This document shows, piece by piece, positions 43,685 through 43,707 of a stretch of DNA of 64,000 bases; the stretch's first letter is position 1, and each line of letters begins with the position of its first letter. Source of the DNA: Escherichia coli (GTDB lineage Bacteria; Pseudomonadota; Gammaproteobacteria; Enterobacterales; Enterobacteriaceae); assembly GCF_013122565.1 (NCBI RefSeq), contig NZ_CP053258.1; one strand, given 5' to 3'. The notes below the pieces were generated by a model. That model saw only the letters and a list, made by a program, of their open reading frames with translations, was not told where the DNA came from and did not search any database. Made by a program: the position numbers and the translations under genes.

Positions 43685-43707
43685 GGTATAACAGGTATAA
43701 AGGTATA
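43685..43707 (+). promoter_or_regulatory. NanR operator: three tandem GGTATA repeats in the nanA promoter
   Basis: GGTATA at 43685, 43694 and 43702 (GGTATAACAGGTATAAAGGTATA), about 40 bp upstream of the nanA start. Confidence 0.8.

Follow-up and report, generated by a model that had tools for sequence, protein, structure and literature searches.

The GGTATA triple between nanR and nanA in an Escherichia coli chromosome is the NanR operator known from K-12

Three copies of the hexamer GGTATA stand in close succession between nanR and nanA in the E. coli DNA analyzed here, a stretch of 64 000 nucleotides that we call the window. Are these repeats the complete operator through which NanR controls sialic acid catabolism, and how much of what has been established for strain K-12 can be said of the sequence at hand? 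Direct reading of the plus strand at 43685–43707 gives GGTATAACAGGTATAAAGGTATA, with exact hexamers, all in the same orientation, at 43685–43690, 43694–43699 and 43702–43707. A sequence-only reading had placed three direct GGTATA hexamers between the two genes, and both the positions and the letters that it gave were found to be right. The hexamers are separated by ACA and AA (3 and 2 nt), with start-to-start distances of 9 and then 8 bp; Tandem Repeats Finder reported the array over the same interval (period 8, 2.7 copies, score 39), and a repeat search returned GGTATAA twice and AGGTATA twice.

A single GGTATA hexamer is unremarkable in the window: its two strands together hold 23 copies, where 14.3 ± 3.7 would be expected. 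The cluster, in turn, is far beyond chance. From base composition we expected ∼1e-4 same-strand triples with spacers of 0–6 nt per 64-kb window, and ∼2e-6 for the exact architecture with 3- and 2-nt spacers; 300 windows simulated with a second-order Markov model contained nine pairs altogether, and a triple in none of them. The real window contains exactly one triple.

Comparison with K-12 MG1655 (NC_000913.3) showed that the interval 43600–43760 is identical at 161 of 161 positions, with the RefSeq genes nanR and nanA on either side. In this alignment with the K-12 nanA promoter the repeats match perfectly, being neither absent nor disrupted; the three hexamers, the ACA and AA spacers and the flanks are those of the K-12 nanA (nanATEK-yhcH) operator, and the gene order dcuD, nanR, nanATEKQ, yhcG is that of the K-12 nan locus. 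The operator itself shows no difference at all; what differs is NanR, which carries A28S and T207A in the window. Since the same sequence in K-12 is the characterized NanR operator, the earlier identification of the array as such an operator is supported. The nanR–nanA region being identical to K-12, the published K-12 operator results therefore apply to the sequence of the window. What the window shows is the already known nanA operator of K-12, carried by another E. coli chromosome, and it adds no new knowledge; it is the switch that turns on E. coli sialic acid catabolism in the mucosal environment.

On a larger scale, the 24-kb interval 36000–60000 reached a best identity of 98.8% in comparison with 5426 complete E. 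coli genomes, and no record reached 99%. The DNA could come from a lineage missing from these genomes, such as Shigella or a sparsely sampled clade of E. coli. A perfect K-12 match over 161 bp, despite at most 98.8% identity over 24 kb, is not statistically surprising.

For the K-12 operator, three GGTATA repeats with 2–3 nt between them have been described, along with induction of nanA of up to 1000-fold (PMC3658417). Operators of this type are defined by at least two, and as a rule three, such direct repeats on a single strand (PMC3658417, PMC8012715). Three NanR dimers bind this operator cooperatively, with Kd values of 39 ± 2 and 20 ± 1 nM and a Hill coefficient of ∼2; a single repeat is bound poorly, two repeats yield two complexes, binding is attenuated when the spacers are made 6 nt longer, and the truncated protein NanR 33–263 binds as a single dimer only (PMC8012715). 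The same study found that N-acetylneuraminate (Neu5Ac) weakens the NanR–DNA interaction and that, in cryo-EM, each NanR dimer is held in an asymmetric pose; crystal structures were also published, and the authors call the loading mechanism of NanR unique among the reported GntR mechanisms (PMC8012715). A genomic SELEX study (PMC5934670) placed NanR among the single-target regulators; in the presence of Neu5Ac, the nanC/fimB spacer was the sole region kept. Release of NanR from nanA by Neu5Ac would agree with this result, which nevertheless shows that in that assay NanR has a tighter site than the one at nanA.

We are nearly certain that the array is the NanR operator of nanATEK-nanQ (yhcH), bound by cooperative dimers and relieved by Neu5Ac. 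The presence of the array, its architecture, its identity with K-12, its population-wide and cross-genus conservation and the intactness of the repressor and target genes come from the present analysis; stoichiometry, affinity, cooperativity and the response to Neu5Ac are carried over from the published K-12 experiments by sequence identity. Without sialic acid, NanR dimers encoded directly upstream would load cooperatively on the array, one dimer per GGTATA repeat and three in all, with the cooperativity expected to depend on NanR's N-terminal extension of 32 residues. The resulting NanR–DNA complex, predicted to sit on or just past the RNA polymerase binding site, would keep nanA transcription off. 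Neu5Ac entering the cell would then bind the C-terminal FCD domain and lock NanR in a form that binds DNA less well, upon which the operon would be induced.

It may be that each hexamer is really part of an imperfect 8-bp palindrome, as GGTA-TAAC, GGTA-TAAA and GGTA-TATC can be compared with an ideal GGTA-TACC. Read together with the next two bases, repeats 1, 2 and 3 are GGTATAAC, GGTATAAA and GGTATATC, matching the perfect palindrome GGTATACC at 7, 6 and 7 of the 8 positions, respectively. Related operators adjoining NanR-like regulators read GGTATACC GGTATACT GGTATAAT; the palindrome idea draws support from the perfect form in these operators and from the asymmetric cryo-EM pose. A strong GGTA left half combined with a degenerate right half would explain both the binding of one dimer per repeat and the asymmetry of that pose.

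The idealized 8-mer behind each repeat, GGTATACC, is itself a GGT-AT-ACC palindrome, and NanR shares with FadR the winged-helix fold and the mode of DNA binding (PMC8012715). In the classical operators of the FadR subfamily of GntR regulators, however, one dimer occupies one palindrome (FadR on fadB, PDB 1HW2), whereas NanR places three dimers on direct repeats with 8–9-bp spacing and achieves cooperativity via its N-terminal extension.

The genes on both sides of the array are those of the nan cluster in K-12 order. The gap that holds the array, between nanR (42830–43621, plus strand) and nanA (43743–44636, plus strand), is 121 bp long, and 36 bp separate the end of the array from the nanA ATG. 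The product of nanR is a 263-aa repressor of the GntR/FadR subfamily (NCBIfam NF003011, 408 bits against a cutoff of 260). The first gene that the operator controls, nanA, encodes N-acetylneuraminate lyase (TIGR00683, 571 bits; 99.7% identity to K-12 over 297/297 aa). Further along the plus strand we found nanT, the sialate:H+ symporter gene (44745–46235; NF003024, 948 bits; 99.6% to K-12 over 496 aa); nanE, for ManNAc-6-P 2-epimerase (46283–46972; NF002231; 99.6% over 229 aa); nanK, for N-acetylmannosamine kinase (46969–47844; NF047821; 97.6% over 291 aa); and, as the last gene of the operon, nanQ (yhcH), for N-acetylneuraminate anomerase (47841–48305; NF040884; 96.1% over 154 aa). The six Nan proteins of the window align over their full length to the K-12 counterparts, with 96.1–99.7% identity. 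Upstream of nanR, on the opposite strand, lies a gene for a DcuC-family transporter (dcuD in K-12), and the gene content of the window as a whole (argR, mdh, degQS, rplM-rpsI, sspAB, dcuD, nan, yhcG, gltBD, arcB and others) is that of an ordinary E. coli chromosome. The sole match in an Rfam scan of the window was the small RNA ArcZ (59608–59715, minus strand; RF00081, 120.8 bits), which adjoins arcB as expected.

The ribosome-binding site of nanA (GAGG) and its ATG occupy 43734–43745 (plus strand), where 11 of 12 positions are invariant in comparison with Enterobacter. A further copy of AGGTAT(T) at 43735–43741, 28 bp past the operator, overlaps this Shine–Dalgarno region (GAGGTATTTATG), and its Enterobacter counterpart is kept as GAGGTATCTATG; it is probably just the ribosome-binding site.

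The sequence-only reading had called the operator consistent with an intact sialic acid regulon. Intactness held for nanR and for nanA-nanT-nanE-nanK-nanQ, all of full length; nanCMS, nanXY/yjhBC and fimB, which NanR also controls, are not in the window, and in K-12 they lie ∼1.1 Mb from the nanA locus. As these genes lie elsewhere in the genome, the claim of intactness is limited to the nanR-nanATEKQ cluster.

One could then suppose that the operator is intact and the circuit altered, for instance by A28S weakening the cooperative loading or by missing partner operons, in which case the site would be no evidence of an intact regulon. The window NanR is identical to K-12 NanR at 261 of 263 residues, with A28S and T207A as the only differences, and it aligns to PDB 6ON4/6WFQ/6WG7 over its full length (residues 1–263, E = 6e-171). 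Codon 28 (42911–42913) falls within the 32-residue extension that mediates cooperativity and is needed for higher-order complexes. EC1515, the closest complete genome, also has T207A; A28S occurs in neither EC1515 nor K-12. The location of A28S and its absence from these two genomes speak for an altered circuit, as do the position of nanCMS and nanXY outside the window and the existence of strains without parts of the system (PMC3658417). On the other hand, the change from Ala to Ser is conservative, the extension being otherwise present; the putative DNA-contact residues S33, E58, G68, S71 and R73 (listed in PMC8012715) are kept, as is N89, described as well placed for DNA contact; the rest of NanR is unchanged, and the five operon genes are of full length. 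We regard an altered circuit as very unlikely.

Conservation of the array was considered at two distances. Of 5426 complete E. coli genomes, 5408 contain a match to a 76-bp query around the operator, identical in 4726; a 37-bp core, made up of the operator and 7 bp of each flank, was 100% identical in 5360 E. coli records. In the sampled E. coli variants the changes were outside the repeats (G-to-A at 43664; an extra T after the array). The near-total invariance of the operator across 5400 genomes shows how tightly the site is held. The extra T just 3′ of the array was seen in the isolate CB6886.

At the larger distance we used a three-way alignment of the window and two Enterobacter species, in which NanR is 82–83% and NanA ∼90% identical. 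All 23 of 23 operator positions (43685–43707) are invariant in this alignment, a figure that is partly a matter of ascertainment because the pattern itself was what led to these loci. The contrast between the operator and its flanks is still informative. Directly 3′ of the operator the extension TCGTT (43708–43712, plus strand) is invariant at 5/5 positions, and the 5′ UTR after it at 6/23. On the upstream side, the block TGCTTAATTGATCT directly 5′ of the repeats (43671–43684, plus strand) is invariant at 12/14 positions, the segment 43663–43669 at 2/8, and the block 43628–43662, which holds a CRP-like box, at 30/35. The complete (GGTATA)3 NanR operator at 43685–43707 on the plus strand is, then, both identical to K-12 and conserved in E. 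coli and Enterobacter.

Where does the nanA promoter lie with respect to the operator? A sigma-70 consensus scan of 43560–43800 found no promoter. The sole −10-like hexamers in the intergenic region, TATAAC in repeat 1, TATAAA in repeat 2 and TATATC in repeat 3, are formed by the repeats; manual pairing of TTGCTT/TTGATC with these hexamers gave spacers of 11, 12 or 20 nt and no convincing −35/−10 pair. Because the repeats themselves make the only −10-like hexamers, we infer that the operator most likely overlaps the −10/+1 region, with one of TATAAC, TATAAA or TATATC serving as the −10 element. The block TGCTTAATTGATCT may act as a −35 element, belong to the NanR footprint or have another role. 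Kalivoda et al. in 2003 reportedly observed that NanR protects ∼30 bp ‘covering the promoter region’ and are said to have mapped the start site by S1 analysis.

It is conceivable from such an arrangement that the repeats are core-promoter elements only, stacked as TATAAC, TATAAA and TATATC to provide alternative starts, and that NanR regulates elsewhere. Every repeat does make a −10-like hexamer, the intergenic region offers no other −10 candidate, and in the Lachnospiraceae sites described below repeat 3 forms a perfect TATAAT at 18 nt from TTGACC. Yet in published work NanR dimers were seen on exactly this array by EMSA, ultracentrifugation and cryo-EM, with binding dependent on the number and spacing of the repeats, and the GG dinucleotides, for which a −10 element has no use, vary no more than the TATA part. 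We rejected a promoter-only role on the published binding and the conservation of GG, and judge it extremely improbable. Promoter and operator roles are not exclusive; for the NanR operator, its overlap with the −10 element is likely the mechanism of repression.

Activation could come from the conserved upstream block. At 43631–43646 it contains a candidate cAMP-CRP site, AGTGA-N6-TCGCA, with two mismatches to TGTGA-N6-TCACA; this match is not above chance, the window having 21 CRP-like cores against 26 expected. Because the core match is no better than chance, it is the conservation of the block that speaks for the site, and its role in activation is plausible. If transcription starts near 43700, the candidate site would be centered at −61.5; at class I/II promoters activated by cAMP-CRP the site is centered near −41.5, −61.5 or −71.5. 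A second CRP-like core, GATGA-N6-TCACA, is present at 42801–42816, 14 bp 5′ of the nanR start; it also has two mismatches and is not above chance.

Arrays of the same kind are found in K-12 upstream of nanX (yjhB) and nanC. The core GATCT-GGTATAACAGGTATAAAGGT is common to these two operators and that of nanA, as is, in similar form, a TTGC(T/G)T block upstream: TTGC(T/G)T...TTGATCT precedes both, resembling the block at 43671–43684. They differ from nanA in having three extra bases between TTGCTT and TTGATCT and in being placed ∼430–440 bp 5′ of the start codons, compared with 36 bp for nanA. In the nanX operator CAG comes after repeat 3; in the nanC operator repeat 3 is degenerate (GGTGCA). 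When window positions 43653–43707 were compared with the K-12 locus L127 at 6585–6650 (plus strand) and 42880–42983 (minus strand), a block of ∼55 bp (TTT.TGTATGG...TTGC(T/G)T...TTGATCT and the repeats) was recognizably alike in nanA, nanX and nanC. Because this ∼55-bp similarity goes beyond the repeats, it suggests that the three control regions may be copies of a duplicated promoter–operator module. The 37-bp core has a median of two matches per E. coli genome, which fits the paralogous operators upstream of K-12 nanX and nanC.

The block TGCTTAATTGATCT also includes a GATC (Dam) site at 43680–43683, one base 5′ of repeat 1 (TTGATCTGGTATA). The GATCT junction likewise precedes the K-12 nanX and nanC operators (near 6620 and 42948 of L127) and the operator of one Enterobacter species, that of the second reading GCTCT. 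For the nanC-fimB region, NanR-dependent protection of GATC from methylation has reportedly been described.

The notion of a chance cluster in A+T-rich intergenic sequence with no regulatory role has practically no probability left and was rejected: GGTATA is common (mildly above the expected 14 copies in the window) and the triple pattern occurs at least 120 times in 298 Gb, mostly as unrelated 8–9-bp tandem or interspersed repeats, but simulations and composition leave almost no room for a triple in one window, the array is identical to a characterized operator, it is invariant in E. coli records and Enterobacter while the adjacent UTR drifts, and it recurs upstream of K-12 nanX and nanC.

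Does the same architecture extend beyond Enterobacteriaceae? The triple pattern was sought in 100 044 species-representative genomes (298 Gb) and at least 120 loci were found; chance by itself would be expected to give tens of matches in 298 Gb, and the scan is no test of specificity. The matches listed were mostly unrelated 8–9-bp repeat families in Bacteroidota and other MAGs, and no Escherichia or Salmonella was among them. A NanR-like GntR+FCD gene was situated ≤250 bp from the triple in 7 of the 120 among the matches listed, with one other such ORF in the remaining ∼900 kb of the matches listed. The seven regulator-adjacent loci belong to Enterobacter (two), a Sphingomonadales MAG, Synergistales and Lachnospiraceae (three: two of Hungatella and one of Enterocloster lavalensis); the five triples outside Enterobacter are at L053 6003–6024, L061 6788–6809, L012 3602–3623, L028 8520–8541 and L069 1040–1062.

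The Lachnospiraceae, Synergistales and Sphingomonadales sites resemble the nanA site: each consists of three direct GGTATA repeats with an 8–9-bp period, lies in a divergent promoter region and has a GntR+FCD gene within 250 bp. In Lachnospiraceae GGTATACCGGTATACTGGTATAAT exactly fills the spacer between TTGACC and TATAAT. The differences concern the regulators and the neighboring genes. These regulators are 35–53% identical to NanR or less (53% in the Sphingomonadales MAG; 35% in Synergistales), and in Sphingomonadales and Synergistales they have no long N-terminal extension, the GntR domain beginning at residue 15. The neighbors do not make up a canonical nan operon: they are of the cyclase-family, ApbA-like, DHDPS-family and YhcH-like types or, beside the Synergistales regulator, a Zn-dehydrogenase (Zn-ADH) and TRAP DctP. 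In the literature we found no experimental test of the GGTATA-triple sites of Lachnospiraceae, Synergistales or Sphingomonadales.

These sites suggest that the operator type may be wider than the sialoregulon of Enterobacteriaceae. One could speculate further, and we do so tentatively, with somewhat more doubt than belief, that GGTATA is the strong half of a GGTA-TACC palindrome and that triple arrays with 8–9-bp spacing are a conserved operator architecture of an FCD-type GntR clade reaching well beyond Enterobacteriaceae (Lachnospiraceae, Synergistales, Sphingomonadales). Such arrays would control non-canonical sugar-acid clusters, in two of the three lineages (Sphingomonadales and Synergistales) by regulators that lack the extension on which cooperative loading is believed to depend.

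The side observations offer small leads only, namely the triples beside genes for NanR-like regulators of distant phyla and a natural allele with four repeats. The latter occurs in E. coli PSJ-07 (NZ_AP027619.1, 497196–497880), where the sequence aligned to window positions 43685–43693, GGTATAACA, has undergone a 9-bp tandem duplication to give GGTATAACAGGTATAACAGGTATAAAGGTATA; the 80–90% identity band into which this allele falls contains 3 of the 5426 genomes.
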